DNA from: Atractiella rhizophila
Taxonomy: Eukaryota
Assembly: GCA_021432655.1 (NCBI GenBank)
Contig: MU271614.1
Coordinates: 1 to 39,104, forward strand
DNA: 39,104 nt
Reading direction: 5' to 3'
Position numbers and translations under genes: made by a program. The notes under the pieces are model-generated. The model had not been told where the DNA came from. It worked only from the letters and a program-made list of their open reading frames with translations, and ran no database searches. This document shows positions 3,222 to 34,618 of the stretch, piece by piece. The stretch's first letter is position 1. Each line of letters starts with the position of its first letter.

Positions 3222-6200
3222 ATGTCCTCCCCATTGCCCCTTTGGACGCCCTCTCCCTCCTCCCCTCCCGCTAAGATCACGGAGTTCCTCAGCTTCGTGA
3301 ACACGCGCTTTGCTCTCGATCCTCCGCTCAAAGACTATTGGCAGCTGCATAGATGGAGCGTCAGTGATGACGGGATCGGCAGATTCTGGGAAGCGGTATG
3401 GGAGTTTACGGGTGTTGTTGGCGACAGAGAAAAAGGAGGACAGGTAAGTGCGATTCGTGTCGTCGTCTTTCATCTCCTTCGTCGCCTTGCTAGCTTTGTG
3501 CCATATTACGGCTTACTTCGTTTATATTTTATCAGATGCATATAATTTCCATTAAAATTGACTGCATTTCAACCGCTAGTAGTCTTTGATTGAATCCCAA
3601 CAGTTTCACAACTGCCAATTTTGGTCTGTAAATGGTACTTTGTGATTTTAAGTCGTTGGCTACAACGATCAGTAAGGCTGGACGTCAGACAATTCCAGCA
3701 ACAGAGCCACAAGGTGCCCGTGCCGAGACTGACCTGATATTTCCTTGAGGAATTAGAGCAAGAGACCCACCATTCTGAATGAAATCAGTTCCAAAGACTT
3801 GTGCTTCTCTTAGGCATGCGTATACGCCAGTTCGGCGCGATTGGACGGGAGATTGCCAGTCATCTGTTTATAGTGATTGATGTGTCCATTAGGACAGAGA
3901 CGACGAAATCTTGTTGTTTGGAAGGTATTGTTTCATGCCACACCAGGCACTTATCTTTGTCCTTTATTGCTTCATGTGCATCTTGACCCTATTATCGAAT
4001 AACTTACATAGTTTTATTTGGACAGGTCCTAGACACCACATTACGAATGGATAGCATTCCGCCATGGTTCCCAGGCGCCAGGATAAACTGGGCTGAGTAA
4101 GTGTATTTCTCTCTCGAGTACAATGCCTCCTCTCAAACCAGGCACTCACGTACGCAGAAATATGCTCTCTCCACACCGGAACTCCACCCGCATAGCACTC
4201 ATCCAGCTATCCGAAGATCTGATACCTACCAAACTATCCTACGCCGAGCTATATACACGCGTCCACAGCTTCTCCGCCTACCTTTCCTCTCCATCGATCG
4301 CATTCGGGGAAAACGACGTTCTGGCGTATTACGGTCCGACCACCTCGGAATCCGCCATCTCTCTCCTCTCCTGTTCCGCCCTCGGAGGCGTCTTCGCCTC
4401 CTGTGGTTCCGATATGGGCGTCCCTGGCGTCGTGGATCGGTTGAAACAGATACGTCCGAAAGTACTCGTCGTTGGGAAGGAAAGCGTGTACGCTGGGAAG
4501 CGGTTCGCTTTGAAGGAGAAAGGGGAGGAGGTTGCGAGGTTGGTCGGTGCCCAAGTCACAGTGCTACATGTTGGAAGCTCACAGTGGGAGACTGCACTGA
4601 CGGAAGGCGTCAAGGAGGAGAGTACCGAAATTGCTTGGAGGAGAAGAGAGTTCAATGACCCGCTTTGGGTGTTATTTTCTTCAGGGACGACTGGTGCTGT
4701 GAGATTTCTTCTCTTTTATTTTTGCGACCTATGCAACTTAACAGCTGACTGCTGCAGCCGAAACCTATCGTCCATCGGGTTGGAGGGATGATCTTACAGA
4801 GTAAGAAGGAACATGTGATACACGGTGATATCGGACCTGAAGATGTGCGTCTCTAAATCTCTCCTGCACTCGATTAGGGATGCTAAAGGAGGGTTTGGGA
4901 CAAGGTCTTCTTTTATTACACCACGCCGGGTTGGATGATGTTCAACTATCTTCTATCCGCCTTGTCCACTGGCGCCACACTTGTCTTATACGATGGTTCA
5001 CCACTCCACGACCCGTCGATCCTTTGGCGAATGGCGTCTCAGTTGCGAGTAACAATATTAGGTGTTGTTAGTCCTCCCTTCCTCCATACCCAGCCGAAAA
5101 GAGCCTAACGACAGTGAATAGTCGGCCAAATACCTCTCCGTCCTCTCCACGTCGTACTCGCCAGCAAAAGCAGAAGGACTCGATCTCACACCACTCCGCC
5201 AGATCCTCAGCACTGGTAGTCCGTTGAAGGCTAGCTTATATGAGTGGGTGTACGAGCATGTAAAGAAAGACGTCGTTGTGGGTTCCATCACTGGCGGAAC
5301 GGACATCTGTTCCCTCTTCTGCGGCTACGGCACCTACCTACCTGTAGGTCCTACTTAGGACCTCCCTCATGAATTAGTGCAAACTGATCGAGCTTGCAGG
5401 TATACGCGGGCGAAATCCAGCACGCAAATCTGGGGATGGCAATCGAGGCTTGGAACGAAGAAGGGAAAAAGGTGGCAGTGGGAGAGAGCGGGGAGCTCGT
5501 GTGCATCAAGCCGTTCCCCGCGATGCCTATTCGCTTCTGGCCTACCACGGAGGATCCGGATGGGATGCAAAGGTATCGGGCCGCGTACTTTGGAGATTTC
5601 GAAGGGGTGTGGAAACACGGAGACTACTGTTCGTCTTTCTCTCCTTTTCCCCCAAATATAAGTAAAGAAGATGAGCTGAATCGAGCAACTTAGGCATATT
5701 CACCGAGAGAGGAGGAATTGTTATGCTTGGACGGTCAGACGCAGTCCTGAACCCATCAGGAGTACGCTTTGGCAGCGCTGAGATTTACGAGGTGCTAGAA
5801 GGGATGGGCGAAGCTGAGGGAATCCTCGATTCGCTGGCTGTAGGACAACCTATCGATGATGGGGCTGATGAGAGGGTCGTCCTTTTTCTTGTCATGCAGG
5901 AGGGCCATCTATTGGACGAGGAACGAGCGAAGAGAGTGAAGGCGAAGATTAGACAAGCGTAAGCTGACTGTTCCTGAATTAGGAATAAGCATACTGATGT
6001 CGACGTTAGGAGGAGCCCTAGACACGTACCTGCCGTGGTGTTGCAGGTCCAAGATATCCCCTATACGTGCGATATCTCATCTCTTTTTTGATCCTGTGCT
6101 CACTCCAACCTTAGGATAAACGGGAAGAAGGTCGAAGTGCCGGTCAAGAAACTGATTCGGTGCGTTCATCTGCCCCAGACCGTCTTGAAGCTGAATAGCA

Positions 6201-12714: not shown

Positions 12715-13803
12715 TTAGTTGGTCCTCTGCCTCTTTTTGCTCCTCTTCTCCTCCTCCTCATCTAAATCAATCTCCTTCGAAGCGTCATCGTCGTCCTCTT
12801 CGTCCTCGCTGTGGTCTTCTCCATCTTCGAGGTCGCTATCAACATAGACGCCAGCGAAGAGGTCAAGAGCCTGCTCATACACAACGTTGAACTGTCCAAT
12901 CGAATAACAGGTCAGGCCTGCGTTCATTCAATGGTTATGAGCGGAGGAGCGTACCATTTCAGCGAAGTTGTAAGGGTCCTGTCCATCCTCGCCACTAGTG
13001 AAGTAGTTGAAAAAAGAACCGTGGATCTGATCAGGAACCTCGTCGAACTCCTCCATATCATCGATATTCTTCGCAGGGTACTTCTTGACGAGATTCTTAT
13101 CTTCCGACTTCCAATCAATCGGGGTAGGTGACGTGTAGGTCTCTGCTTCCAACGAGTATTTGGGGACGGGGGCCGCAGGAGTTTCCAATTTGACGTTGTC
13201 CGCAGGTGTCAAACTATAGGACTTGACAAGGGTTGTGTTGCTGAAGAAAGGGTTCTCCTTGAAAGTCTGTGCATGTCGAACGCATGTCAGAAAGCGTCTG
13301 GCAGTGAACAGAACGGCGGCGCAACGTACGAGCACAACGTCAAAATACCTAGGATCCTCCTTGTGAATGATTTTCAAGTCTTCCAGAGCCTCAAGAGCCT
13401 CTCTGTCCTCAGCAACCATGAAGCTGCTCAGGTTGGCAAAGTTGGTCAACTGTTCTCCCCGTTGACGCGTTCAACCCCCAATTAGGCCAGAGACGAAGAA
13501 ACACGCACGGCAGTCAACCAAAATTTGGGGTACTTTTTGATGAGCGCCTCTCGTTGGGCGAGCACCTTCTCCTGAGCTGCCAACTTCTGTTTCCCTGTTA
13601 CACCAAACGAATCACGAAAAAACGCGTCAAGTCAGACATTCTTCCCAGTGCAGCTCCAACAAAGAAGACGTACAAGCCTCATATTCGACCTTTTGCCAGG
13701 ACTCCACAATGGTATTAGCCTCCTCGACATTGGCACCATAAATCTCCTTGTACCTCAAAGATTTGATGGACACCATATCAACAATTTCTCCGTTCGCTGC
13801 CAT
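12715..13803 (-). CDS. NAP-family histone chaperone (SET/TAF-I/Vps75-like), multi-exon
   Basis: QREALIKKYPKFWLTA, EDREALEALEDL, FKENPFFSNTTLVKSY, SPTPIDWK..KNL, SFFNYF, and an acidic C-terminal tail ending in basic KRSKKRQRTN. Confidence 0.85.
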
Positions 13804-14677: not shown

Positions 14678-15465
14678 TTTTGATTCTTGTTTTACGTCTG
14701 CTAGTTACACCCCCATCATCAGGGTTCAAGTCTGCTGTCAATCTCCATGTTTATCTCGACAATCATCAATATGGTAGAATGAAGTCAACCTAGATTTGGG
14801 AAAACTAGGACTTGATACTGCAGGCGAGTCATTATTTCTCTCTGAGGGAGACGACGCTTTCCTCTTCATGGTTCGATGCCTGTGCAGCAGATCCTCGTCA
14901 TCAAAGAGAAGTAACGCAAACAGTATTTAACTTGTTGCATTTGCAGCCTGCGTGACTATCTGTTACTCTCCATGCATCCGACTGGGAGCATGAAATGCCA
15001 ACTCGAGTGATTCCCTATGGGGTTGCTGAAAGATCGAAGAGCTACGCACGCAAACAAAGAGGAAGGGCACAGGAGTCTGAAGTATTGTCCGGTTCAAAAC
15101 ACGTTGAGAGTCATGTTAAGTAGGTCTCACTATATTCTCAACGTCAGCGTCTAGCTGGGGCTTTCGAGCGCCGGAGATCACATCTCCCAAGCAGCATGGC
15201 GCCGTCGTCTCTTCCTCTGCTTCAATGGCTGCTGCCCCAACGAGCAGCTCCACTCCTCACCACCGACTTCGGATGTTTTGGACCTTTGACACATCAGAGC
15301 GGGAACGGGAAGAGACAACCGCGATCATGACCACAGCGCGGAGAAACTGGAGTATAGATCCGTAATAAGGAGTGGATAAATACTAAAAGGCGATATGTTC
15401 GCTCCCTCTCAATCCGGCCAGCTTCAACGATCTCTGACCACCTGAGCACGCCATCTCCGCTACCT

Positions 15466-16685
15466 ATGGATCCCTCAAAAGCCACTGCAGCACTTAAGGA
15501 TTTCTCTCTCCCTCCCTCGCCTCCCAAGACTGTTGTCATAGTCGGCGCTACCTATGGAGTAGGAGCTGCCGTTGCACGGCAATGTGCTCGTATTGGATGC
15601 GCCAGAATCTTCATTATGGGAAGGAGCGAAGATAAAGCTGAGGGCGTCTTAAAGGAATTAAAGGAGAATGGCAAGGACTACTGGCAGGTTGCCTTCGTAA
15701 AAGGGGATGTTTCGTACGTTTCTCAATCATGTTTCCGGTAAAGGAAGCTGAGACAGCTGCAACTGTAGCAACAAAAGGGGGATGAGGAAGGCGGCAGAGG
15801 ATCTCAACACTGCTCTCGGCACAGGACAGATTGATTATCTGGTTTGTATTCCCCCTACAGACGATTCTAAAGTTACGCGGTGATGATGCATCCGGTATAG
15901 TTCATGTGCCAAAATGGGGTACCCTCCGGCATTATCAGAGAGAACGAGGACGGGTGCGTCTCCTATCCCGTTTATGACTCTGATGGTTTGACTTTTGCTA
16001 TTTTCTAGGGAAGAGATCGCGTTCGCTATACAAACTCTTTCCCGTTTCGCTGTCCCATACCTGCTCATCAAATCCCGCTCACTCGCACCGAATGCGAAAA
16101 TCATCACAATCGCGAATTCAGGAATGGACTTTGCCGAGCTTTCAACGTCTGACCTTTCGCTCAAAGAGAGAGCACAAACGAGGCCCAAGATAACTTTGAC
16201 TCAAGATCAGTCGAAGAGGGATAGCTGCGTCCTTGACACCATCACAATGGTCTGTCATCCAGTTCCTAAAAAACCAAACTCTGATTCCAACCATGCATTG
16301 TAGGAGTTCAATGCACGTTATCCTGAATACAGCTGCTACAACATCTGGCCAGGATTAGTGAAAACCGAATACTTCTTCTAGAACAATTCTCTTCCTTTCC
16401 CACTCTCAACGATTATGAACCTCGCGGTTCGCCTGGTGGGAACAACGCCGGCTGCTTTCTCCAACACACCAGTCTACGTAGGCACCCGTCTTTCTAACCG
16501 CATGTGGACAAGTCGTTCTGAATTTCTGGCAGATTGCTTTCCACCCAGAGGCAGAAGAGAGGATGGGTAACGGGAAGCTTTGGCAATATACCATGAAGCC
16601 GAGCAAACCAGGCAGTTGGGCTCAGAACGACGAGAACAGGAAGAATTGTTGGAATACTCTCAAAGTTATGATTGGAGAAAAATAA
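15466..16685 (+). CDS. Short-chain dehydrogenase/reductase-like NAD(P)-binding protein with an in-frame TAG at 16379-16381 (possible nonsense allele or pseudogene)
   Basis: Rossmann motif VVIVGATYGVGAAVA, IMGRSEDKAE, IDYL|FMCQ, FAIQTLSRF, NIWPGLVKTE. The frame continues past the TAG to ..CWNTLKVMIGEK* (TAA 16683-16685). Confidence 0.8.
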
Positions 16686-17415
16686 TGTAGAAGTATGCCA
16701 TCCAACTTGAAGTTGACAACACATTTAAGTCCAGAGATCGTGTGCAGCAAGGCAGCACGAAGAAAGATACGTTGGCATCCATCAATAACAAGGACTCGTT
16801 AGAGAACATGGAAGGAGGCCGAGATTTTGACACGATTCCCACGGGCTGTTGTCACAATTCCTCCAACCCCTGTATTAATAACAGTTTGTTTCACCACGAC
16901 ACTTCCTCTTATGCGCCAAAATTCAATAATATATACTATCCCCTTCATCTCACAACCGGTTCAGGAATAGGCTATACCACCCAGGCTTACAGGCTTACTA
17001 ACCTTCAAGTTTGAAGCGTTGTCTCGCGTCCTGCGGCGCGGAAGCACTCCTTCCTCGGCACCATGAAAATGCTAGGATGACTAGATGTTCCGAGGGATGA
17101 CGCGTCCCTGGAAGTCAACAGTGTGGGAACTCTGGAAGATTGTTAATGTAACAGCCATTTCGTATTATACGCTGACCAGATTTGTGGCTCCACGTTCGCG
17201 CATACCCAGGTAGTGGAGCGCGCGAAGTGAACGACGGGGAGGACCATCGGCCCCAAACATGGCATTCTTCGCCCAGAAAATCAATGAACGGGCTTTCGCA
17301 TATACCGCCTGCTTCCGAGGCACTATATAGGTAGGCAAACGGTTATCATGTCCAAAGCCCCTTTCGCCGCCCATCACACAGTAAAACACGATAAAAGCAG
17401 CAAAACTTCAAGGAG

Positions 17416-17637
17416 ATGGCTACAGCAACATCGCCCGCACCTGCCTATACCCATCTCTCCCCACCGCCTTACGCCCCCTCTCCTCCGCGCTCAATATCGA
17501 GCGAGACCTCTGCATCACTAGTGACAGAATCAGAAGCGAAGAAGGAGCCGGAGAGCTTTGTTTCATGGTTCTTTGGTTTGTTCAAGGACGATGGGAAGAG
17601 AGAGCAAAGTAGGGGATGGAGAAATGATAGGTGGTGA
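17416..17637 (+). CDS. Small intronless 73-aa protein with PY-like motifs and C-terminal RNDRW (paralog of 27863-28174)
   Basis: Good start context (ggagATGG), TATA-like ctatatag near 17323, and clear protein-level similarity to the 103-aa ORF at 27863-28174. Confidence 0.7.
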   Translation: MATATSPAPAYTHLSPPPYAPSPPRSISSETSASLVTESEAKKEPESFVSWFFGLFKDDGKREQSRGWRNDRW

Positions 17638-18122
17638 CAGGTGATAGCAAGTATGCACAATTACTGGGGAGTAAACAGTGCTCATGCGACTGAACAGCCC
17701 TGAAGACGCGGACAGGTTGCTACACTAGCACTAGCCAAACTCATCAGACATTTCGGATTTCCAAACACCTTCCTTATCTGAACTTTCGTAAATTCGTTGT
17801 CAATATTCAATACTTTTGGATATCGCGCGGCTCATACACTACATACTGCATGATGTTAATCCCATTACTCTGTACTTCATAGCGGGCAGCATCTGACCAA
17901 TGTCAGTTGGTGCTGACTGGATGAATAAAACAAATTGAAGCGCACAATGCTAACACTCACCATTCCCTTAATGCCAGGCAGTTACGAGAGGTCTTTCTTA
18001 CGACTCCTCGCCCTCACAATCAAGTAGTGTAGATGCTGAGACGCCGTTATCCCTGAGGGGTTTACTACTCCACTCAACCTGTTAGATTGAGAAAGACAAG
18101 ACAGAGAAGGCTAAGTCTTGGG

Positions 18123-19263
18123 ATGGTGAAATCTAAAAGGCATAGCCTAAAATCGGGTTCGTCTTTTATCGTACCTTTGATTCCATCGCATGTATTGACA
18201 AGACTGATTGCAGCGCTGGAGCGCATTCAGTCATCCTCGAAGAAGAGGAAGCTGGACTCTCCTTCCACTGCTGCCGCCAATGGAGCTGAGGATGGCCGAA
18301 TGGCTAAAAAAGCAAAGCCAAATCCGTCCGTGGCGAAGTCGCAAGCAAATCAACAGCCTGTTATACCTTTCACGAAGGGAGAGTCCGTCCTGCTTGTTGG
18401 AGAAGGGGATTTCACTTTCACCCTAGCACTTTTGTCCCACCTCTCGTCTACCTCCGCCAGCGATACAAACGAGGATGGTGCTGGCGAAGGAGATCTGCGA
18501 ATCCTCGCGACCACATTTGATAGCCTTGCAATTTCGAAGGAGAAGTATCCGACGGTGGAGGAGACTGTGAAGTCAATCGAGGAGCAAGGAGGGAAGTGTG
18601 TCTTCGGCGTAGATGCGACGAAATTAGAGAAGTACAAGGAAGTAAAAAGGAAGAGCGGGTGGGATAAGATTGTGTTCAACTTCCCTCATTCTGGTACTCC
18701 TCCTCTTCCTCTCACACTCTAATTGACAGTACCAAACTGTAGGCTCAAGCATCGCAGATCAAGATCGCAACGTCCGCACAAATCAATCGCTCATCCTCCT
18801 CTTCCTACGCTCAGCACATCCCCTTCTACGACCTTTATCCTCCACCTCCCCCTCCTCGCGCACTCTACGTCGTACTCCCACCCCGGACTCAGATGCTGAG
18901 CCTTCTCTATCACCCGTCTCTCCAGCCCGCTCGACATCGGACCCGTGTATCCTCATCACCCTCTTTACCGGCTCACCATACACTCTGTGGTCCCTTCCCG
19001 ATCTAGCAAAAAACAAGCGCTCAATGTCGCGGACCGTCCTCGAGCCTCCTCTGAACGGACTCAAACAACCGACGTATGAGGTCCGGAGAAGCTTCAGATT
19101 CCCTGCTCAGAAATGGGGTGAGTTGGGATACGCTCATCAGAGGACGAATCCGAACTTGAAAGACGGGCGAAAGAAAGGAAAGGTTGGAGGAGGGGAGGGA
19201 GAGGCCAGAACCTGGGTGCTTGTTCCTAGGGAGGAGAAGCGCAAAGAAGGCGAGAGTGATTGA
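18123..19263 (+). CDS. BMT5: 25S rRNA (uridine-N3)-methyltransferase BMT5-like (DUF2431), 3 exons
   Basis: VLLVGEGDFTFTLAL, ILATTFDS, FGVDATKL, WDKIVFNFPHSG|SSIADQDRNVRTNQ, ILITLFTGSPYTLW, SFRF..GYAHQRT. Confidence 0.88.
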
Positions 19264-19434
19264 ACGTTTTGACCTGAAGCTGGAAAGCTTGACTCTGCAG
19301 AGATGATGCATAGCACAGAGAGTCGATTTATCGACGGTTTGCGATATATAGCCAATGAGTTCTACCGGATGTATCTAAAAGTACACAATCACTGTACACG
19401 CCAATAACTAATATGCCCAACAATCTGATCCATC

Positions 19435-21716
19435 TCAAACAGCAGGTCCCTTATAAGGGCTTTTCAGCTTTCCATCCAAGCTCAGCTTCAACTGGAGAGC
19501 GACCAGCTTGGAGAGGTGTCGACTGCTTGGCTGTTGGGTTTGAAGAAACCAAAAACCAGGGTCTACAGTCGTAAATGGGGTGAGATTCCATGGACTGTTG
19601 GAAACAGGGAACGGAGGCTTACGACCAGATTGCACAGCAACTCCCTTCTGCTCAGCTTCTGAGTAGATTCCCTGCACATCTTCCATTTTGTTCGCTTCCT
19701 CTATGCCAATATATTTAGAAGCTGTTTCTCGTTGATCGTTATCCTGGAATCTATGCGTCGATTTAGTCAGTCTACACGCTCCATCAGGAATCAGGACGAA
19801 CCCCGTGGCCATGACAATCACATCGGCTTCATCTACGGTGCCATCAGAATATTCAACTCCCTTGTCAGTGTACCTGACGATTTGTTTCTTGGATCGAATC
19901 GTCACACGCCCATCGAGGACCATGTCCGCCATTCCACAGTCGATGAGATGACCGGCTATGGAGATGCAAACAGTCAACAGTGACCGCAGGAGTGGAAGGA
20001 GAGAAAGACGTGCCATGTTTAACGTAGATGCAGTTCCAGAAATCCTTCTCCTCTGCAATCATCATTCCCTTGGCTTTCATGCTATCATAGAACTCCTTAT
20101 TCTGCTCTGCCGAGAACTTGATCCAGCCATTCAACAATATCCGTCCGATAGAAGGAGGGAGGGATTCGCTCATCTGGTCGGAAATTTCGATCGGCGTGAA
20201 ATCGTTGTAATGTTCGTAATGTTTTCCAATCGCCTCCTCGCAAGTGATCATGCACGACGTGTTACGCTGATAAAGGACGACGGAGGAGAGACCAAAGCGG
20301 ACCATGTCCATTGCGATATCGTGAGCTGAGTTCGCCGCTCCTTGAAGTGTAATGTGTTTAGGAGAAGGAAAGAATGTGCAGGCGTAGAAGGCATACCAAT
20401 GATTAGTCCTCTTTTGCCTTTCCACGGCTCTGCATTCCAGTATTTGACACTATGAACGATGTCTCCCTTGAACTTCTCCTAAACAATAGCACATTAATGG
20501 ACACCTTTACTGGAGGAGATGCAGAGAAAACGTACCCGCTCCGGAATTTCCGGTTCGTAAGGATCCGTGTTCCCTACTCCGGTGCACATTACAATGTGCT
20601 TCGCCACAATGGTTTTCACTCCGTCCTTTCTCTTAATCTTATTCGTCCACTCCTTCCGATCTTCATCCCATTTTCCGTCCTCCCACCTGCTCTGCATGTA
20701 GACAGGTAGACCCAAAGATTTTCGATAACTCTCGTAGTGATCTGATAGCTGTTGAGCCGTAATAAAGACAGGATAGTTTTCTGGGTAGCGAAGAAACGGC
20801 ATGTGCCCTATTTTCTTCGGTGTGTCTGCATGTTATTGGATGTATCAATGTTATATGCATGATCAGGTGAGGAGTACGAACGCAGTTTGCAAGCCTCGTA
20901 ACGTGTGCCCCAGCTGTCGCCACACTTCTGGTTGCCATCCACTACGACGTGAGGGATTTGGAAGGACTTGAGAAGGGCTGAGAGGCAGAGACCGGATTGG
21001 CCAGCGCCTGGGCCAATTGTTGTCAGTTTTCTCAAGGCGGCTAACAGTCGAATGGGTCACATACCGATAACGAGGATGTCGGTCTGTTCAGGGAAATTGC
21101 CGTCTGGCGCACCATTGGCAATCGGCTTCTCCTTCATCTTCTGTTCATCAAGGGTTTCGACGCCATCGAGCGCGAAGATGACTGTATATACAGTCCAAAG
21201 TTTCCACCTGTCTTCTGCAACCCTCACAGCTCGGAAGCTCCCCATGCAACTAGCTTTCGGCTCTTCGATCTCAAACACGAAGCCAGTATCAAGCCAATGA
21301 GTCTTTTCTGAGAACTCCACGATCTTTCCCGGCGCATCTTGAAGGCGGAAAGAGTGCGGTTTCGCGTGAGGAGCGAGGGCTTGAACAGCTTTGGAGATAT
21401 TAGGGATTCCATGGATGGATCGAATCGAAGCTATTTCACCACAATCACCAGAACATATCAGCGTAAGAGGCAAAGGGGAAAGAAAGTACGAACCAGTGAA
21501 TGCGAGCTGATCACGCCAAACAGCACCATCGAGGAACAAGTTGTTCAAATCGTCGTCCTTCCCTTCAAAAACCTTTGCCAGCTTATCCACCAATTCCTTT
21601 CCCATGAATTGATGTCCGTGCTCTGTGGAATGGGAAGGTTAGTAGTAGGAAAGGAGACGGGGATAGAATCAAGGGGTGCCGATTCGGCAGTTGGGCGGAA
21701 AGTGTCTCTTTGCCAT
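19435..21716 (-). CDS. Flavin-containing monooxygenase (class B FMO, fungal type with N-terminal extension), multi-exon; start at 21716 or 21605
   Basis: LFLDGAVWRDQLAFT N-terminal domain, FAD motif ILVIG|AGQSG, GDSWGTRYEACKLHTP, FMO signature FKGDIVHSVKY, NADPH motif IIGAANSAHD, DVIVMATGF. Confidence 0.88.
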
Positions 21717-22791: not shown

Positions 22792-24449
22792 ATGAGTACG
22801 ACGCATCCTTTCTCCTGCCTCACTTGCTCTCTTTCTTTTGCCACTCCGACGCTGCACAGAGATCATTACTCATCCGAGCTCCATCGGTACAACGCTAAGG
22901 TACGCCACTCATCATCTTTACCCTGTCTTGCCTCTGGCTCATATGTGCAACGATGTAGAGAAAAGTAGCGAAACTCCCACCGGTCACCCGGGAGGTATGG
23001 GAGGAGAAATTGGGAGCTGGCGCGAAGTTGGAGAAGGAGGAAGCAGAGAAGAAGGAGGAGTGGTACTGTAAGGCTTGCAGGTAAGTCACAGCTTTATTCA
23101 TGACAAATGACCCTTTCTGTGTGTTTCCTCGGCCATATTTTTATTATGCTGTCAGGAGCATCCAATTTACATTTCTGTCCTTTGATGTTTTAAGTGGCTG
23201 CTAGAGTGTATGCATTTTGTCTCTATTGAATTTGTACTCATTGGTTTTGAGAAAGAGGAGGAGTTGCTTTGATAATTTGTTCACTTTATGCCGTTCCTTT
23301 TACATTCTTGCCTGCTGAGCATAAACAGAGCTGACTAACCAACCTTCTTGGCTCTCAGCAAATCTTTCTCGTCTATCAATGCGCATCGCAATCATCTCGA
23401 GTCCAAAAAGCATCGCGATAATGTCTTCAAGTCTTTCTCAGCCGATTCCATCTCAAAATCACAATCACAATCTACCATCTCCAAATCTGCTTCCAATTCT
23501 CCCTCCGAAGAGTCCACGGACGTAGCAGCTGTGACACAGTCTCTCGCTTCTGCTTCTCTCGCAACGACACCAGGAGGAGACACAATGGATGCCCTCGTCA
23601 AATCCCGTCTCGCCTCCCACCCTCCGCTCCCGAAAGGAACCTGCCTCTTCTGTCACTCTTCGACCTCCTTCGCTTCGCTCGATGAGCTCACAACCCACAT
23701 GCAGCGCAAACACGGTTTCTTCATTCCCGACTCTGAGTATCTCGTCGACCTTCCAGGCCTGCTGGGTCGATTGGGTGAACTGGTTGGCACCTGGAATGTG
23801 TGCGTTTGTTGTGGGAAGGGGTATGGGGGTGAGGTCGTTATTGAACAGGTCGAGGAAGAAGGAAGCGAGAAGAAGAAGGTGAGGGAGAGAGATGGATTGG
23901 ATGCGGTCAGGAAGCATATGGATGCTAAACGACATTGTCGCTTGCCTTGGGACACCGAGGAGGAACGGCTTGATTATGCGGATTTCTATGATTACCGACC
24001 TTCTTATCCAGATTATAAGCCACCGAAAAAGAAAGAGGAGGAATGGGAGGACACAGAAGATGTTGAGGATGACGAGGGAGAGGTTGTTGAAGTTTCGGCA
24101 TCGGAGGACGAAGAGAGCGAGGAGGAAGAGGATGAAGACTTTGAGAATACGATTCCCATTTCCTACGGTTCAACACCTTATGAACTCATCCTCCCCTCTG
24201 GCATTCGAATTGGTCATCGTTCCCTTCGGAAGATTTACGCTCAAAATCTCGCTCCGCATCTCAGCAAATCCGCTGCCTCTAGATCTGGTCCTTCGAAGGA
24301 TTCCCAGCTCGTAGATCGTCTAGCAGAGAGCGTCACGACAGGAAAGAGTCTTGCATTATCGAGGCAAGGTTTAGTGGCCGCGAAGGGAGGTGGAGGGAAG
24401 TTTGGGAGGGGTGGAGAGCTGGTGAAGGCTAGAAATGCGGGAGAGGCCA
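22792..24449 (+). CDS. REI1: Pre-60S maturation zinc-finger protein REI1/ZNF622, 5' part (interrupted at 24449 by mirror block A)
   Basis: ATG 22792 MSTTHPFSCLTCSLSF..HYSSELHRYNAK|RKVAKLPPV; introns 22900-22958 and 23081-23358; WYCKACSKSF..HLESKKH; CLFC..HMQRKHGFFIPDSEYL; AVRKHMDAKRHC; ELILPSGIRIGHRSL. Confidence 0.92.
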
Positions 24450-26185
24450 ATCGGAAAAATATATAGCCCCAACGTGGAGGGCTCCTCGCGCTACCTGTGT
24501 GGCGTCAAAGCCGCGACTAATGTGGGGTCTGCAACTTCGTTCGGTTCCGAGCCGCTCTGTGAACAAGACGACAACACGAGTGCTTCGTTAAAAAGGAGTC
24601 AAACGGTGACTTCCGCAACCGAATGATCACAACGACAATAACGGAGATCTCAGAGAGAGTACTATCTTCCTCCGTAGGGATTCTGTATCTGACGGGAACA
24701 GTTTTCACGTACTGTTGGAAAAGTGAGGAAGGTTTCTTCGACAAGCGCTCAGTGACACGCGATGTCAGGCAGTAAAGCTCTGGAACTGGGAGTTACGGAG
24801 TAAAACGTCCGGCCCCTCTCTAAGACGGTATTCCTATATAACCCTTTTGATTGTCTGTTCGTCTATTATATTACTTGACGGGCGAGTAGGCGCGTACCCG
24901 ACTGAGGTCTTCGTAAGGAGCCGTACAACTCTCTTGTTTCGGGTCACGTAGAGCACGGTTTCCCACTGTTTCTGTCCCTTTAAGACGAGACAGACCTTTT
25001 AGACTTCCAGTGCCTATTTTCGCTCCTTCAGATGATAACCCGCTGACCTCGCCTCAAGTACCTCGCGCGGCCTGAACTGTCGTAACCGACCTATTTTCGC
25101 AATATAACCACTTCGAAACGGAGGTACGGGGGTTGCGACCACTATTAGTCTCTTCTAAGACTGTCTTACGGAAGAAGAGGGGATGGAGCTATAAGGGGAC
25201 GTAGTCTTCTCGGTGGAGGCCGAATAAGAGGAGCTCTTAGTTCCCGACTGCTGTGAGTCTAGCCTTATGCGCAAGCAGAGTTGCAGTAATATCGTCGACT
25301 TCCCCTAGTTCTAAGAAGCTACTTGCAATGTTGGCTTCTGTTCTTGAAGGAGAGGTTTAATCGATCCAACAAGTTCTTGCTTCATCATCTACCCTTCTTC
25401 CTTGTGGTTTCTCGCGCATCCTTGCTATCTACCATCTGAGGCCATGCGGAATAAGACTAAGTGACCTGTTTCGAAATAAAGAAGATATCTTCTGCCACAT
25501 ACAGGATTGGGAGGCGTGCTAAAGCTTCCTGTATCCGAATAAAATCGCGTAGTAGAACTACCATATCTAATACGAACATGTTTATACCGTCATTAAACCT
25601 AAACGGTCACACATGGTGGTGCTGTCACTCTTACCCTAGTCGCTTACGTAGTAAAGCGTTCACAGGGTTCGTACAAGACCACTGTCGTTCTCTCTCCCTA
25701 CTTGATCAAAGGATTTAGAGCGGAAATGGTTTATACTGTTTAGAGACGGGAGCTGATTACGTTAGAACAGGAGTTGATTCGTCCTAGGTACGTTACAAGG
25801 ACCGCTACAAACTTACGAGTCGCAGGACTGACCATACGTGTACGTGGTGTTTACTTTGAAGGAAGTTCAAGGTGGAAGCCGAACCTCCGCCATCCTGCCT
25901 ACTACTACTCTCCTCAGATCTTATACCTAAAGTGAAGCTATGTAAAGGTGACGTGATACGTGACCGTGGAAGAAAGGTGGAGAGGTGAAGAGGATGTAGG
26001 TTGGAGTACGAGTAACCTCGTCTCCTAGAGACTTCACAAAAACTAATGATGGTGTCGTATAGAATAATACCGGCTGTTAGCTGACTCTCCCTTATTTTGC
26101 ATGAACAAGAAGTATGGTCACTGCTTGACAACGAGTGACTAGAAGGAGACCAGGGATATGAGGGATTATACAGAAGGTCGAAGGA
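24450..26185. repeat. Mirror block A: reversed, non-complemented copy of 27114-28521 plus ~32663-32988
   Basis: 24450 atcggaaaaatatatagccc is the backwards reading of 32988..; 26161-26185 agggattatacagaaggtcgaagga reads backwards as 27114 aggaagctggaagacatattaggga. Colinear throughout. Confidence 0.95.
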
Positions 26186-26674
26186 NNNNNNNNNNNNNNN
26201 NNNNNNNNNNNNNNNNNNNNNNNNNNNNNNNNNNNNNNNNNNNNNNNNNNNNNNNNNNNNNNNNNNNNNNNNNNNNNNNNNNNNNNNNNNNNNNNNNNNN
26301 NNNNNNNNNNNNNNNNNNNNNNNNNNNNNNNNNNNNNNNNNNNNNNNNNNNNNNNNNNNNNNNNNNNNNNNNNNNNNNNNNNNNNNNNNNNNNNNNNNNN
26401 NNNNNNNNNNNNNNNNNNNNNNNNNNNNNNNNNNNNNNNNNNNNNNNNNNNNNNNNNNNNNNNNNNNNNNNNNNNNNNNNNNNNNNNNNNNNNNNNNNNN
26501 NNNNNNNNNNNNNNNNNNNNNNNNNNNNNNNNNNNNNNNNNNNNNNNNNNNNNNNNNNNNNNNNNNNNNNNNNNNNNNNNNNNNNNNNNNNNNNNNNNNN
26601 NNNNNNNNNNNNNNNNNNNNNNNNNNNNNNNNNNNNNNNNNNNNNNNNNNNNNNNNNNNNNNNNNNNNNNNNNN
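26186..26674. other. Assembly gap (489 N)
   Basis: Run of N. Confidence 1.
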
Positions 26675-27288
26675 GATTATAAGCCACCGAAAAAGAAAGA
26701 GGAGGAATGGGAGGACACAGAAGATGTTGAGGATGACGAGGGAGAGGTTGTTGAAGTTTCGGCATCGGAGGACGAAGAGAGCGAGGAGGAAGAGGATGAA
26801 GACTTTGAGAATACGATTCCCATTTCCTACGGTTCAACACCTTATGAACTCATCCTCCCCTCTGGCATTCGAATTGGTCATCGTTCCCTTCGGAAGATTT
26901 ACGCTCAAAATCTCGCTCCGCATCTCAGCAAATCCGCTGCCTCTAGATCTGGTCCTTCGAAGGATTCCCAGCTCGTAGATCGTCTAGCAGAGAGCGTCAC
27001 GACAGGAAAGAGTCTTGCATTATCGAGGCAAGGTTTAGTGGCCGCGAAGGGAGGTGGAGGGAAGTTTGGGAGGGGTGGAGAGCTGGTGAAGGCTAGAAAT
27101 GCGGGAGAAGCCAAGGAAGCTGGAAGACATATTAGGGAGTATAGGGACCAGAGGAAGATCAGTGAGCAACAGTTCGTCACTGGTATGAAGAACAAGTACG
27201 TTTTATTCCCTCTCAGTCGATTGTCGGCCATAATAAGATATGCTGTGGTAGTAATCAAAAACACTTCAGAGATCCTCTGCTCCAATGA
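26675..27288 (+). CDS. REI1: REI1 3' part (overlapping duplicate contig carrying the true C-terminus)
   Basis: 26675-27113 repeats 24011-24449 (one difference noticed, 24445 g / 27109 a). It then continues EAKEAGRHIREYRDQ..GMKN, intron 27196-27251, NNQKHFRDPLLQ* (TGA 27286-27288), the conserved Rei1 ending. Confidence 0.9.
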
Positions 27289-28521
27289 GCATGAGGTCGG
27301 ATATAGGAGAAGTGGAGAGGTAGAAAGAAGGTGCCAGTGCATAGTGCAGTGGAAATGTATCGAAGTGAAATCCATATTCTAGACTCCTCTCATCATCATC
27401 CGTCCTACCGCCTACAAGCCGAAGGTGGAACTTGAAGGAAGTTTCATTTGTGGTGCATCTGCATGCCAGTCAGGACGATGAGCATTCAAACATCGCCAGG
27501 AACATTGCATGGATCCTGCTTAGTTGAGGACAAGATTGCATTAGTCGAGGGCAGAGATTTGTCACATTTGGTAAAGGCGAGATTTAGGAAACTAGTTCAT
27601 CCCTCTCTCTTGCTGTCACCAGAACATGCTTGGGACACTTGCGAAATGATGCATTCGCTGATCCCATTCTCACTGTCGTGGTGGTACACACTGGCAAATC
27701 CAAATTACTGCCATATTTGTACAAGCATAATCTATACCATCAAGATGATGCGCTAAAATAAGCCTATGTCCTTCGAAATCGTGCGGAGGGTTAGGACATA
27801 CACCGTCTTCTATAGAAGAAATAAAGCTTTATCCAGTGAATCAGAATAAGGCGTACCGGAGTCTACCATCTATCGTTCCTACGCGCTCTTTGGTGTTCCT
27901 TCTTCCCATCTACTACTTCGTTCTTGAACAACCTAGCTAATTTGGAGAGGAAGTTCTTGTCTTCGGTTGTAACGTTCATCGAAGAATCTTGATCCCCTTC
28001 AGCTGCTATAATGACGTTGAGACGAACGCGTATTCCGATCTGAGTGTCGTCAGCCCTTGATTCTCGAGGAGAATAAGCCGGAGGTGGCTCTTCTGATGCA
28101 GGAGAATATCGAGGTAAGGGAGAAGAAGGCATTCTGTCAGAATCTTCTCTGATTATCACCAGCGTTGGGGGCATGGAGGCAAAGCTTCACCAATATAACG
28201 CTTTTATCCAGACAATGCTGTCAAGTCCGGCGCGCTCCATGAACTCCGCTCCAGTCGCCCAATAGTAGACTTCCTCGCTTTTATCCGTGACCTTCAGATT
28301 TTCCAGACAGAGCAGAATTTCCCTGTCTTTGTCACCCTTTGGCACGAGATGCACTGGGCTTTGTTCTCTCAACATGCCGAGGAATGCTTCTGGAGTCAGC
28401 CCATGCGCGGATGAGCGGGCAGTTCATTATATTATCTGCTTGTCTGTTAGTTTTCCCAATATATCCTTATGGCAGAATCTCTCCCCGGCCTGCAAAATGA
28501 GGCATTGAGGGTCAAGGTCTC
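27229..28521 (+). repeat. Direct near-identical copy of 31364-~32662 (allelic haplotype duplication)
   Basis: Colinear with scattered SNPs and small indels (e.g. agttcatccc vs agtacatgtacgtccc). Confidence 0.93.
27863..28174 (-). CDS. Small intronless 103-aa protein with LPxY/PPxY motifs and C-terminal RNDRW (allele 1)
   Basis: Similar to 17416-17637; differences among its three assembled copies are synonymous or conservative. Confidence 0.7.
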   Translation of the reverse strand: MPPTLVIIREDSDRMPSSPLPRYSPASEEPPPAYSPRESRADDTQIGIRVRLNVIIAAEGDQDSSMNVTTEDKNFLSKLARLFKNEVVDGKKEHQRARRNDRW

Positions 28522-28546
28522 NNNNNNNNNNNNNNNNNNNNNNNNN
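28522..28546. other. Assembly gap (25 N)
   Basis: Run of exactly 25 N. Confidence 1.
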
Positions 28547-31363
28547 CGGCTGTTAGCTGACTCTCCCTTATTTTGCATGAACAAGAAGTATGGTCACTGC
28601 TTGACAACGAGTGACTAGAAGGAGACCAGGGATATGAGGGATTATACAGAAGGTCGAAGGAACCGAAGAGGGCGTAAAGATCGGAAGTGGTCGAGAGGTG
28701 GGGAGGGTTTGAAGGGAGGTGGAGGGAAGCGCCGGTGATTTGGAACGGAGCTATTACGTTCTGAGAAAGGACAGCACTGCGAGAGACGATCTGCTAGATG
28801 CTCGACCCTTAGGAAGCTTCCTGGTCTAGATCTCCGTCGCCTAAACTACTCTACGCCTCGCTCTAAAACTCGCATTTAGAAGGCTTCCCTTGCTACTGGT
28901 TAAGCTTACGGTCTCCCCTCCTACTCAAGTATTCCACAACTTGGCATCCTTTACCCTTAGCATAAGAGTTTCAGAAGTAGGAGAAGGAGGAGCGAGAGAA
29001 GCAGGAGGCTACGGCTTTGAAGTTGTTGGAGAGGGAGCAGTAGGAGTTGTAGAAGACACAGGAGGGTAAGGAGGAGAAAGAAAAAGCCACCGAATATTAG
29101 GCCTATTCTTCCAGCCATTAGTATCTTTAGGCGTATTAGTTCGGCAAGGAGGAGCCATAGGGTTCCGTTCGCTGTTACAGCAAATCGTAGGTATACGAAG
29201 GACTGGCGTAGGTTAGGTAGAGAGAGGGAGTGGAAGAAGAAGAGCGAAGGAAGAAGGAGTTGGACAAGTTATTGCTGGAGTGGGGGTATGGGGAAGGGTG
29301 TTGTTTGCGTGTGTAAGGTCCACGGTTGGTCAAGTGGGTTAGCTGGGTCGTCCGGACCTTCCAGCTGCTCTATGAGTCTCAGCCCTTACTTCTTTGGCAC
29401 AAACGCGACGTACACCCAACACTCGAGTAGCTCGCTTCGCTTCCTCCAGCTTCTCACTGTCTTCTCTGTCCAAGGAAAGCCCTCGCCTCCCACCCTTCGC
29501 TCTGCCCTAAACTGCTCCCGTAGGTAACACAGAGGAGGACCACAGCAACGCTCTCTTCGTCTTCGCTCTCTGACACAGTGTCGACGATGCAGGCACCTGA
29601 GAAGCCTCTCTCTTAACCTTCGTCTAAACCTCTACCATCTAACACTAACACTAAAACTCTACCTTAGCCGACTCTTTCTGAACTTCTGTAATAGCGCTAC
29701 GAAAAACCTGAGCTCTACTAACGCTACGCGTAACTATCTGCTCTTTCTAAACGACTCTCGGTTCCCAACCAATCAGTCGAGACAAATACGAGTCGTCCGT
29801 TCTTACATTTTCCTTGCCGTATTTCACTTGTTTAATAGTTTCGTTGAGGAGGAGAAAGAGTTTTGGTTACTCATGTTTAAGTTATCTCTGTTTTACGTAT
29901 GTGAGATCGTCGGTGAATTTTGTAGTTTCCTGTCTTTACATTTAACCTACGAGGACTGTCGTATTATTTTTATACCGGCTCCTTTGTGTGTCTTTCCAAG
30001 TAAACGGTACTTATTTCGACACTGAATGGACGTTCGGAATGTCATGGTGAGGAGGAAGAAGAGACGAAGGAGGAAGAGGTTAAAGCGCGGTCGAGGGTTA
30101 AAGAGGAGGGTATGGAGGGAGCACTGGCCACCCTCAAAGCGATGGAAAGAGATGTAGCAACGTGTATACTCGATCTCCGTTCTGCCCCATTTCTACTACT
30201 CACCGCATGGAATCGCAACATGGCTACCTCGAGCCTACTCATTACTAGAGACACGTCGCAGCCTCACCGTTTTCTTTCTCTCGTTCACTCCGTCCTCTTT
30301 CCTACGCAGCGTGAGTAAGACGATGACTCTTTATGAAAGGAAGTCTACCACCAAAACACACAGAAAATAGAGTCCGTTCACTAAGCTCAAAAGCTCAAAA
30401 CTAACTAGCATGAAAAACTAGAACTAGTCGAAAACTTAGTCGAGTCAGCGACTAGTCAATCGCCTGCCTTTTCGTACGCCGACGCTGGAGTTGCTAAGGG
30501 AGCTGAAGCTGAAAAGAGGTTGAGAAACGAAGCGGGTGCGGCACAACCATTGCGGTACGAAACTGTATATAACACTACGCACCGGGTCAACTGAGTTCAC
30601 GACTCCCGTACAACGAGTGATGTTGGCGCATTGTCGTTGCGCTGACCTCCAAAACATTACACCTTTTCGTAAACCCTCGCGTCAACTCTACTTTTGTACA
30701 AATTTTCCCATTCTACCGAAAATAAACGGAGTTTCCATATAACCTTCCACACCTTTCACAAAGCCTAGTTTCGTATATTTTACCTTGAGCAATGACAGTA
30801 TTGGAGGGTGAAAAACATTACTAAGAGATATAGTCGAAGAAAGAGATTCGCTGTCAGTCGAATTTTAACTTTGCTCTTCATGGTACAAAGGAGGAGAGGG
30901 TTATCTTTATCTCTCATCTTTACAAAACACTATCGTTTATGTGGATACGAGGTTGGCAGTCAGTAACGGGACTTCCGCGGTGCTAACACACGTGACAGAG
31001 GCTCCCATCCAAACTATAAATATGGTGCTTACTCATGGTACTTACTCATGGTACTTACTCTCTACCACCTGGAAGGAAGTGAAGTTCCACAAGAAATATG
31101 AAGTTACTTAACAAGCGCAGTCACCCCGTCACGTTACAACTTGTAGACGGCGATAAAGGAAGTAACGGAAAAGATCGACGGAGGGTGTTAGTCGAGCACG
31201 CGTTTTGACCCTATGCTAGCGAGAGGTCGAGCGATACTATTGGTAGTAACAGTCCTTAGCTCTTACTCATTACGCACGAAGATTATAAATCGGCCATTTT
31301 CACCCCTGCCTCCTTGGCTAAGAAGCGGGTCGAGCGGTGACCGTCGAAATTTTGTTTGGACCA
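28547..31363. repeat. Mirror block B: reversed, non-complemented allelic copy of ~21807-24449 plus 27114-27228
   Basis: 28547 cggctgttagctgac is the backwards reading of 27228..; 31321-31363 reads backwards as ~21807 accaggtt..gagctgggcgaaga. It contains almost the whole REI1 gene written backwards. Confidence 0.95.
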
Positions 31364-31386
31364 CATAATAAGATATGCTGTGGTAG

Positions 31387-31423
31387 TAATCAAAAACACT
31401 TCAGAGATCCTCTGCTCCAATGA
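31387..31423 (+). CDS. REI1: Duplicate copy of the REI1 last exon (NQKHFRDPLLQ*)
   Basis: Identical to 27252-27288; its upstream exons lie reversed in mirror block B. Confidence 0.8.
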
Positions 31424-32003
31424 GCATGAGGTCGGGTATAGGAGAAGTGGAGAGGTAGAAAGAAGGTGCCAGTGCATAGTGCAGTGGAAATGTATCGAAG
31501 TGAAATCCATATTCTAGACTCCTCTCATCATCATCCGTCCTGCCGCCTCCAAACCGAAAGTGGAACTTGAAGGAAGTTTCATTTGTGGTACATGTGCATA
31601 CCAGTTAGGACGATGAGCATTCAAACATCGCCAGGAACAATACATGGATCCTGCTTAGTTGAGGACAAGATTGCATTAGTCGAGGGCAGAGATTTGTCAT
31701 ATTTGGTAAAGGCGAGATTTAGGAAACTAGTACATGTACGTCCCTCTCTCTTGCTGCCACCAGAACTTGCTTGGGACACTTGCGAAATGATGCATTCGCT
31801 GATCCCATTCTCACTGTCGTGGTGTTACACACTGGCAAATCCAAATTACTGCCATATTTGTACAAGCATAATCTATACCATCAAGATGATCCGCTAAATA
31901 AGCCTATGTCCTTCGAAATCGTACGGAGGGGTTAGGACATACACCGTCTTCTATAGAAGAAATAAAGCTTTGTCCAGTGAATCAGAATAAGGCGTACCGG
32001 AGT

Positions 32004-32315
32004 CTACCATCTATCGTTCCTACGCGCTCTTTGGTGTTCCTTCTTCCCATCTACTACTTCGTTCTTGAACAACCTAGCTAATCTGGAGAGGAAGTTCTTG
32101 TCTTCGGTTGTAACATTCATCGAAGAATCTTGATCCCCTTCAGCTGCTATAATGACGTTGAGACGAACGCGTATTCCGATCTGAGTGTCGTCAGCCCTTG
32201 ATTCTCGAGGAGAATAAGCCGGAGGTGGCTCTTCTGATGCAGGAGAATATCGAGGTAGGGGAGAAGAAGGCATTCTGTCAGAATCTTCTCTGATTATCAC
32301 CAGCGTTGGGGGCAT
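32004..32315 (-). CDS. Small 103-aa RNDRW protein (allele 2 of 27863-28174)
   Basis: Same protein except K>R in NFLS[K/R]LARLFK. Confidence 0.7.
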   Translation of the reverse strand: MPPTLVIIREDSDRMPSSPLPRYSPASEEPPPAYSPRESRADDTQIGIRVRLNVIIAAEGDQDSSMNVTTEDKNFLSRLARLFKNEVVDGKKEHQRARRNDRW

Positions 32316-33227
32316 GGAGGCAAAGCTTCACCAATATAACGCTTTTATCCAGACAATGCTGTCAAGTCCCGCGCGCTCCATGAACTCCGCTCCAGTCGCC
32401 CAATAGTAGACTTCCTCGCTTTTATCCGTGACCTTCAGATTTTCCAGACAGAGCAGAATTTCCCTGTCTTTGTCACCCTTTGGCACGAGATGCATTGGGC
32501 TTTGTTCTCTCAACATGCCGAGGAATGCTTCTGGAGTCAGCTCATGCGCGGATGAGCGGACAGTTCATTATATTATCTGCTTGTCTGTTAGTTTTCCCAT
32601 CATATCCTTATGGCAGAATCTCTCCACAGCCTGCAAAATGAGGGATTGAGGGTCAGGATCTCGAAATGACGGACTGTAGCACACAGTGACTCGCGAACAG
32701 CTTTGTCAGAGGGATTCAAAAGCTTGTCATGCACTTTTGACAAGGACAGTCTATATCTTGGGGATCCCTCCTTCTATCATGAGAGAGAATCTAGAGGCAA
32801 TAACAGCAGTAGTAATAAGCCAACGTCTTCAGTGGCAAACTGAGGAAAATTGCTTCGTGAGCACAACAGCAGAACAAGTGTCTCGCCGAGCCTTGGCTTG
32901 CTTCAACGTCTGGGGTGTAATCAGCGCCGAAACTGCGGTGTGTCCATCGCGCTCCTCGGGAGGTGCAACCCGATATATAAAAAGGCTATGCATTGAGTTT
33001 GTCGTTCCCAACTGCTTGCTCGAAAGCGTCCACAGAGTAATGTGCCAAGGCAACGAGTCATCATATCGCGACACCAATTTCATTTCAATCGTCACTGCAA
33101 TGAAAAGGTAGGTCCAGTCAAACATCACCCAAACAAGAAACGCAAACACAGAAAGTTGTCATCCCAAGCTGATTAATGGATGGTATTAAACGTAAGCTTT
33201 CTGTTCATAACGACAACGATGCAGGAT

Positions 33228-34618
33228 TTAACCCCTTCGGATCTCTCCAACAGGAAGGACGAAGAAGGAGTTGTCGGGCGTCAGAATGCCAGCCAATCCA
33301 ACATACTGCAGCGAAGGGAGTCAGCGATATGAAACAGTGACAGAACAGAACAACGTACCCAAGCGATGAAAGCTGTTATGATTCCGAAGGCACCTCCAGC
33401 TTTGTGGACCTTGACATTCTCAGTGAACTCTCCGGCCATCTGTTGCATGGACTCAGTGAGAACCCTCCAAATATCATGGTAGATCACGTACGAGAAGAAG
33501 GAAAGTGATGTCAAGGAAGAAGAATAGAGCGATGAGACCCCACGACGATCGCAGCGTACAGATGAGCATGAGCGTCGTGAAGATGAACCAGGTTGCTATT
33601 TACACATAGCGTGAGAACGACGCGTTTTGGAGTGTGCGAAGGACAGACCTAGGTAAATACCGACGGATGAAACGAGTTGACCTTCCTCTCCTTCAAAAGC
33701 AGCCAAAATGCCAGAATCTGGAATATAGATGGCAGCGAAGGAGAGCCAGAAAGCACCGTAGGAGGAGAAAGCAGTAGCACCGAAAGTGTTCCCGGCAGCG
33801 AATTCCCACATACCTGCATCGCACAGGAACGATCAGTCCTCAGCCCAAGATGAGGAAACAACGCATACCAGCAAGTAGCTGAGCCAAGCCACCATATCCA
33901 AGTGCAAGACCCACAACGACGTTAGGAATAGTGACGTGCCGGGCTTGGACATTGATCATGGAGAGGAAGAAGGTGGTTCCGGCGAAACCCATCAATCCCA
34001 AAGGAGCGGGATTGGCGAATTTCCTGTGGTAGACCGGGAAAGCGGGTTGGGAGGTGTCAACTGGGTGTCCACCAGGAGTGACGGCACGGTTGACGGGCTA
34101 AAGAAGCATGAGCGTTCAGGCCGCTCCAAGGAACCTATGAGCAAAACCTACAGCCCCATGAAAGGCTGGATAAAGATGTCAGTCGAGGACCAGAGATCAT
34201 GACGTGAAACAAGGAGAAAGCTCGGAAAGTTTACACCACGAAGAAATACATATGGTGCTGACAGTTCATACAAGTTCAGGCAACCTGCAACATGCAACAG
34301 ATCATCGAAAGAACAGTCACAGCACGCTCTGGGCAAAGCCTCCCGGTCCGTGTCCCGGACAATAGACAGACAATGTCCCACAACTTCGCATACTGGACGA
34401 AAATAGCGAGACCAGCTTCTTGGCAATCCTCATATTTTCGAGGCAACCCCATTGGTGCTAGGCTATGAAACCGAGCGCACGAGAGTACACCTATCTTTGT
34501 TCCTATACCTTAGGTGCATTGAAAAAAAACGCGTCTGGCAGCTTTCCCCAAACAATTTTCATGAAAGACAAAGCAACATACCAACTTTCTCTCCGTTAGA
34601 AACACCAGACTCTGACAT
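33228..34618 (-). CDS. GPR1/FUN34/YaaH (ATO/SatP) acetate/ammonia transporter, multi-exon
   Basis: MSESGVSNGEKV|AFHGA|PVNRAVTPGGHPVDTSQPAFPVYHRKFANPAPLGLMGF; YGGLAQLLA|GMWEFAAGNTFGATAFSSYGAFWLSF; KAGGAFGIITAFIAW|Y; ends FFVLPVGEIRRG* (33228). The first two exons are inferred from phase fit. Confidence 0.92.

Follow-up and report, generated by a model that had tools for sequence, protein, structure and literature searches.

A Candidate Family of Small PY-Motif Proteins in Atractiella rhizophila, One of Them Carried by a Spliced RNA

We describe two short unannotated open reading frames (ORFs), P0001 (73 codons) and P0002 (103 codons), that are probably real small coding genes of a fungus. Alignment statistics and codon comparisons identify them as true paralogues, conserved at the peptide level and forming one divergent family, and P0001 is the first ORF on a genuine spliced RNA of the plus strand. 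Both proteins begin with a proline-rich third containing two xPxY motifs, continue with a helix of the form F-x-S-x4-LFK and end in a basic tail, GK-x-E-x2-R-x2-RNDRW. The family appears undescribed as far as the searched libraries reach. We tentatively suggest that P0001 and P0002 might act through the WW domains of an Rsp5-type ubiquitin ligase.

Results

Genomic Context of the Two ORFs

The window, by which we mean the whole stretch of 39,104 nucleotides that was analyzed (contig MU271614.1 of A. rhizophila), is fungal-type nuclear DNA with short introns. The Pfam matches found in it are exon-sized pieces of several genes:

4087-4788, plus strand, piece of an AMP-binding enzyme
12931-13470, minus strand, piece of a NAP protein
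15358-15738, plus strand, piece of a short-chain dehydrogenase
18057-19260, plus strand, pieces of a BMT5-like rRNA methyltransferase, the downstream neighbor of P0001
23339-24463 (frame to 24466), plus strand, C2H2 zinc-finger (zf-C2H2_2) gene
33284-34097, minus strand, three exon-sized pieces of a Gpr1/Fun34/YaaH transporter

The zinc-finger gene is presumably Rei1-like. The Gpr1/Fun34/YaaH gene, which we take to be of the acetate-transporter type, lies upstream of the second copy of P0002 (see below) and on the same strand. The zinc-finger gene is itself present twice on the plus strand, at 23339-24466 and at 26675-27382. The frame of the first copy ends early (...ARNAGEANRKNI, then the stop), where a repeat ends at 24450, and that of the second copy runs on (...ARNAGEAKEAGRHIREYRDQRK...); one of the two versions may have been disrupted by an insertion or by misassembly.

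P0001 Is Carried by a Small Spliced RNA

The first-pass annotation, made from the letters alone, had proposed a 73-aa ORF at 17416-17637, and translation of the plus strand gave the protein that it quoted. The features of this locus, all on the plus strand, are as follows:

17324-17330, plus strand, TATATAG, a TATA-like element read from the sequence, about 40 nt 5' of the RNA contig starts
17369-17650, plus strand, exon 1 (minimum extent, from RNA contigs), with the whole coding sequence inside
17416-17637, plus strand, P0001 coding sequence, 73 aa and TGA (from translation)
17437-17448, plus strand, PY-type motif APAY
17461-17472, plus strand, PY motif PPPY
17554-17586, plus strand, hydrophobic helix, residues 47-57
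17620-17634, plus strand, RNDRW end
17651-17697, plus strand, 47-nt GT..AG intron in the 3'UTR, 13 nt past the stop (from the RNA joint 17650^17698)
17698-17860, plus strand, exon 2, 3'UTR (minimum extent, from RNA contigs)

A search of public runs for 17300-17800 listed 24 runs, 20 of which contained part of the stretch; seven of these 20 were recorded as RNA, chiefly root metatranscriptomes. Four of the 24 were compared with 16800-18800: the root metatranscriptomes X1 and X3, and X22 and X24, which are raw poly(A) RNA-seq runs. One contig of X1 joined 17369-17650 to 17698-17828. From X3 we obtained a contig covering 17383-17567 and another joining 17580-17650 to 17698-17860. The 73-aa ORF was wholly spanned by contigs from these two runs, and the joint 17650^17698 was found in one contig of each, with a side of 131 nt in X1 and of 71 nt in X3. 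No other letters were found in the X1 and X3 contigs when compared with the window. The contigs of both runs lacked one base at 17402 and one at 17812, both in the UTRs, which may be due to strain variation or to errors in the assembly. X1 and X3 bear separate study codes and share year, habitat and library type, so that they count as one campaign at most. The poly(A) runs X22 and X24 come from a related organism and gave no matching reads among about 8 million each, which is no test of expression.

No coverage from X1 or X3 was seen at 16800-17368 or at 17861-18386. In the BMT5-like gene, a 49-nt GT..AG intron (18693-18741, plus strand) was also removed in an X3 contig. The canonical splice, the sharp coverage limits and the spliced neighbor together argue that the contigs derive from RNA and not from contaminating DNA. 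Transcription, whose absence for both ORFs had been named as an argument against the family, was thus found for P0001.

The position of the ORF on this RNA is also informative. Its ATG is the first of the RNA contig, with none between 17369 and 17416, and has G at both -3 and +4. An in-frame TAA at 17392-17394, eight codons 5' of the ATG, closes the frame upstream; the intron, being in the 3'UTR, leaves the 73-aa frame untouched. These three features indicate that the ORF of P0001 is complete, has a small spliced RNA to itself and is not an exon of a larger gene. The TATATAG at 17324-17330 would be a putative promoter element. A 57-codon ORF at 17348-17521 (plus strand), out of frame with P0001, was also observed. 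Its ATG is placed shortly before the contigs begin (17369 and 17383), and on any longer transcript this ORF would be an overlapping uORF.

P0002, Its Second Copy and the Assembly

The partner ORF had been placed at 27863-28174. The quoted 103-aa protein is indeed encoded there, on a strand that the first-pass annotation had not given: it is found on the minus strand only, the plus strand of this interval giving only stops. The same annotation had treated the two ORFs as a pair. The pair is real, and a six-frame search of the window added a third locus that had been missed, a second copy of P0002 (copy B). The features, all on the minus strand, are:

27810-27856, minus strand, predicted 47-nt GT..AG intron in the 3'UTR of copy A, 6 nt past the stop (from sequence only)
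27863-28174, minus strand, P0002 copy A coding sequence, 103 aa and TAG (from translation)
28187-28423, minus strand, 78-codon open frame directly 5' of copy A (from sequence)
31951-31997, minus strand, predicted 3'UTR intron of copy B, equivalent to that of copy A (from sequence only)
32004-32315, minus strand, P0002 copy B coding sequence (from the six-frame search of the window)
32328-32564, minus strand, 78-codon open frame directly 5' of copy B (from sequence)

The copy B protein is identical to that of copy A at 102 of 103 residues. The coding sequences differ at 3 of 312 nucleotides, two of the changes being synonymous and the third giving K78R. In the MAFFT alignment, Met15 of P0002 (ATG 28132-28130; MPSSPLPRY...) is aligned with Met1 of P0001, and Met15 may be the true start, with a product of 89 aa. 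The predicted intron of P0002 (GTACGC...TATAG) is as long as the RNA-supported intron of P0001 and sits at almost the same place. This match suggests that the duplication at the origin of the two genes took the whole gene architecture along.

Both copies of P0002 lie inside a 1.3-kb direct repeat (27229-28521 and 31364-32662, 96.8% identical). Runs of N interrupt the window twice, at 26186-26674 and at 28522-28546, and further repeats abut them: 24011-24450 matches 26675-27114 (99.8% identical) and 26071-26185 matches 28547-28661 (100% identical). The repeats at the N runs fit an alternative haplotype or contig scaffolded between two contigs that truly overlap. The two copies of P0002 may thus be alleles or assembly redundancy instead of two loci. 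The two paths through the 23339-32662 region differ, about 4.4 kb vs 114 nt.

The Peptide Is Conserved Between Diverged Genes

The claim that the two ORFs align as proteins was borne out. BLASTP aligned residues 5-73 of P0001 with residues 17-103 of P0002 (28/87 identical, E 2e-10), and MAFFT gave 29 invariant columns. The Smith-Waterman score of the whole proteins was 93, compared with 26.8±5.0 for shuffles of P0002, none of 5000 reaching 93. The C-terminal halves taken separately scored 72 (21±4.4 in shuffles; 0/5000 reached 72), and the P/S-rich N-terminal parts scored 44 (30±5.4), a value reached by 95 of the 5000 shuffles and thus marginal. The statistical weight of the similarity therefore resides in the helix and tail and not in the PY region. 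In the six-frame search of the whole window, only P0001 and the two copies of P0002 fell below E 1e-4, and the hit that followed them had an E of 0.065.

Synonymous codons exist for 27 of the 29 residues that are identical in the alignment, and at 15 of these 27 the two genes use different codons; nucleotide identity over the aligned codons was 114/219. As had been pointed out, the codons of RNDRW differ only synonymously (aga aat gat agg tgg tga in P0001, agg aac gat aga tgg tag in P0002), and the two stops fall at the identical aligned position after this motif. Between the two copies of P0002, the ORF differs less (3/312) than its flanks (35/760; Fisher p=0.0018), which is what purifying selection would give. 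The codon divergence at conserved residues and the low divergence of the ORF between copies point to selection on the peptide, which had been proposed from the RNDRW codons.

We considered that these ORFs could be RNA without translation: P0001 would then lie on a non-coding RNA or on an upstream transcript from the BMT5-like gene, with the similarity to P0002 left over from an old, decaying duplicate. In favor of this reading, the protein libraries offered no annotated relatives, ORFs of 40-90 codons are common in the window (28 ORFs of at least 40 aa in 16000-19500), and codon usage does not set the sense frame apart from an antisense one. A log-odds score trained on the 1402 Pfam-supported codons of the window was +8.1 and +8.6 for the two ORF frames and negative for the other two sense frames, but one antisense frame scored similarly (+9.5 and +5.2), so that the score is weak evidence for coding. 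Against this explanation, amino acids have been kept while synonymous positions diverged, both ORFs stop at exactly one aligned position, P0002 is better conserved than its flanks, and P0001 starts at the first AUG of its RNA in the context given above. We thus consider the absence of translation improbable and retain translated genes as the preferred reading.

An Open Frame Upstream of P0002

Alternatively, each ORF could belong to a larger gene as one of its exons or fragments, or be a piece of a pseudogene; this would concern P0002 above all. The 78-codon frame directly upstream of P0002 (28187-28423 in copy A) is in phase with it, with one TGA between them. The two copies differ at 3/228 positions of this frame, compared with 35/760 for the flanks (p=0.028), which shows that it is conserved as well, and its codon-usage score is +6.9; a uORF, an exon and a read-through partner are candidate roles for it. 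An intron joining this frame to P0002 was sought by eye, and no phase-compatible GT..AG pair removing the TGA was found. The frame also had no Pfam family, no relatives among longer proteins and no counterpart near P0001. For P0001, a fragment is excluded by the RNA, which is colinear from 17369 through the stop, with an in-frame TAA upstream and its only intron after the stop. Taken over both ORFs, we judge a fragment origin to be a poor bet, and we continue to treat P0001 and P0002 as complete small genes.

Relatives and Known Families

Relatives of the two proteins were sought in protein libraries, PDB, metagenome contigs and the ESM Atlas. Neither P0001 nor P0002 matched a Pfam family at E<=10, and there was no Pfam domain match to the Sna3/Pmp3-type, Bsd2 or arrestin (ART) families. 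A search for proteins of near length in a library of 5.8 billion clusters gave one word-sharing candidate for P0001 and two for P0002, none of which scored. HMMER, run exhaustively with a profile over 1.84 billion representatives, returned no match at E<=0.001, a threshold that only close relatives could pass with proteins so short. In the JGI metagenome contigs, the alignment of the two proteins gave 326 pattern matches, none of them confirmed, and a degenerate DNA pattern for GK.E..R..RNDRW-stop gave none. The best ESM Atlas score for P0002 was 0.81, below the 0.9 level of a lead, with no usable match for P0001, and PDB sequences gave no match at E<=10. Titles and opening lines of abstracts from the full-text literature held nothing relevant for RNDRW, and among the matches listed there, judged in this same way, no family of small PY-motif/amphipathic-helix/Rsp5 proteins was described.

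Runs labeled with eight coded organisms contained between 0.23 and 0.83 of the 31-letter words of the locus; we did not count these values as evidence of conservation. The earlier proposal that the family is undescribed agrees with all libraries searched, including the profile search and Pfam. The absence of relatives is by itself weak evidence, since the libraries did not include a six-frame set of fungal genomes and ORFs of fewer than 100 codons are often left uncalled.

PY Motifs, Helix and Tail

Each protein has two tyrosines, and all four lie inside an xPxY motif; neither protein contains a cysteine. The motifs of P0001 are PAPAY (APAY, residues 8-11) and SPPPY (PPPY, 16-19), those of P0002 PLPRY (LPRY, 20-23) and PPPAY (PPAY, 31-34). 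The first-pass annotation had spoken of PY motifs and had named [L/P]PxY as the form that binds WW domains. This form is found in three of the four (PPPY, LPRY and PPAY); the APAY of P0001 is non-canonical. The WW domains of Nedd4-family ligases bind a P/L-P-x-Y consensus (excerpt of PMC9282857). When the local proline-rich segment was shuffled, both tyrosines fell in P.Y in 5.8% (P0001) and 5.5% (P0002) of the cases, and two canonical [LP]P.Y motifs appeared in 0.34% of the P0002 shuffles.

AlphaFold2 predicted the PY-motif regions of both proteins to be non-helical or disordered. The model of P0001 (mean pLDDT 62) has one helix at residues 49-57 and that of P0002 (mean pLDDT 57) has helices at 41-57 and 70-99, such low confidence being expected with only two or three sequences. 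Both proteins are mostly disordered in these models. The amphipathic helix that had been announced for the family applies to P0002, where NFLSKLARLFK shows this character strongly (muH 0.79, mean H -0.03). In P0001 the corresponding FVSWFFGLFKD is mainly hydrophobic and not strongly amphipathic (muH 0.46, mean H 0.51). Neither protein has a stretch of transmembrane length, the hydrophobic segment of about 9-11 residues being too short for a bilayer. Lysines are conserved in LFK and in GK.

We also looked by eye for a PY-type nuclear import signal in the proteins, for which a basic-x(2-5)-PY pattern is required. This pattern fits P0001 only and is not kept in P0002, and we rejected this candidate.

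Discussion

The best-supported mode of action for P0001 and P0002, as read from their motifs, is the following. The PY motifs would dock on the WW domains of the Nedd4-family HECT ligase of the fungus (Rsp5/HulA type), no sequence of which lies in the window, with the helix and basic tail keeping the micro-protein at the surface of a membrane or bound to a partner. From there it may recruit the ligase, titrate it or be ubiquitinated by it, the conserved lysines in LFK and GK being candidate ubiquitin acceptor sites. Paralogy, peptide conservation and the spliced RNA with P0001 as its first ORF are shown here, and we infer the rest, from translation of the ORFs to docking on WW domains, contact with a membrane and a part for the RNDRW end. 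The first-pass annotation had guessed at tiny membrane-associating Rsp5 adaptors or decoys with RNDRW as a docking signal or degron. The link to Rsp5 draws on the PPPY, LPRY and PPAY motifs and that to a membrane on helices predicted at low confidence, and the roles given to RNDRW would be conjectural. An action through Rsp5-type WW domains is possible in our view, with the odds rather against it. The same reserve applies to the whole explanation, combining real paralogous coding genes, PY/WW docking and anchoring by helix and tail, which is the best that we can offer and still a doubtful one. A more detailed scenario, which we consider unlikely, would have lineage-restricted, soluble and disordered micro-proteins use their tandem PY motifs on Rsp5/HulA WW domains and their helix and free basic RNDRW end on a membrane or a second partner, as mini-adaptors or decoys that tune arrestin-Rsp5 trafficking in a root-associated fungus.

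It is quite possible, at somewhat less than even odds, that the proteins are real, lineage-restricted and disordered and that their xPxY motifs are not there for a ligase of the Rsp5 type. They could for example be ligands of another WW or SH3 protein, stress-induced hydrophilin-like proteins, or peripheral membrane or organelle factors acting through helix and tail. The evidence for coding (BLASTP, shuffles, codon divergence and spliced RNA) serves such roles equally well. In addition, conservation is best in the C-terminal helix and tail (0/5000 shuffles, vs 95/5000 for the PY region), one motif in four is non-canonical, and the proteins have no transmembrane or cargo-binding domain as known adaptors do. 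However, all four tyrosines have been kept in P-x-Y, three of them in canonical motifs, in paralogues that are only 32% identical, which is hard to explain without a reader of PY motifs.

Should P0001 and P0002 be translated and bind an Rsp5-type ligase, no smaller soluble PY-motif partners of such a ligase would be known in fungi. They would also exemplify regulatory micro-proteins overlooked by gene callers, neither ORF being present in the large protein collections searched. If their function differs, they would be one more lineage-specific small-ORF family; such ORFs are common in fungi, and few of them combine a diverged paralogue, peptide conservation and RNA support. The practical value is modest and consists of a concrete pair of small genes, one of them supported by RNA, that can be tagged and can be mutated at the tyrosines. 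Translation could be read out by targeted mass spectrometry, for instance of tryptic peptides spanning EPESFVSWFFGLFK.

The nearest known systems are PY-motif partners of Nedd4-family ligases. In yeast, small PY partners of Rsp5 other than Sna3 include Bsd2, Ear1, Ssh4, Tre1/2 and Rcr1/2. Sna3 is a small protein whose PPXY motif binds the WW domains of Rsp5 and which is ubiquitinated on one lysine (excerpt of PMC2171029). P0001 and P0002 resemble Sna3-type partners in being small and having PPxY or LPxY motifs. Unlike these integral membrane proteins, they lack a transmembrane segment; they also contain no cysteine, match no Pfam family and show no detectable sequence similarity to such partners. 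The ARTs and Bul proteins bind the WW domains of Rsp5 with multiple PY motifs and bring the ligase to membranes (excerpt of PMC9282857). P0001 and P0002 likewise have multiple PY-type motifs, but they are proteins of 73-103 residues with no arrestin domain (Pfam, E<=10), in contrast to the ARTs, which are large and have a cargo-binding arrestin fold. In Ndfip1/2, LITAF and CYSTM-type proteins, N-terminal proline-rich PY motifs are followed by a C-terminal membrane-associating element in the form of transmembrane helices, a zinc-ribbon LITAF domain or a tail anchor rich in cysteine. The architecture of P0001 and P0002, with N-terminal PY motifs and a putative membrane-associating element at the C terminus, is similar, whereas they differ from CYSTM/LITAF-type proteins by the lack of any cysteine and by having only a hydrophobic helix of 9-11 residues. 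At most, P0001 and P0002 would thus represent a new minimal soluble form of the PY-motif partners of Nedd4-family ligases.
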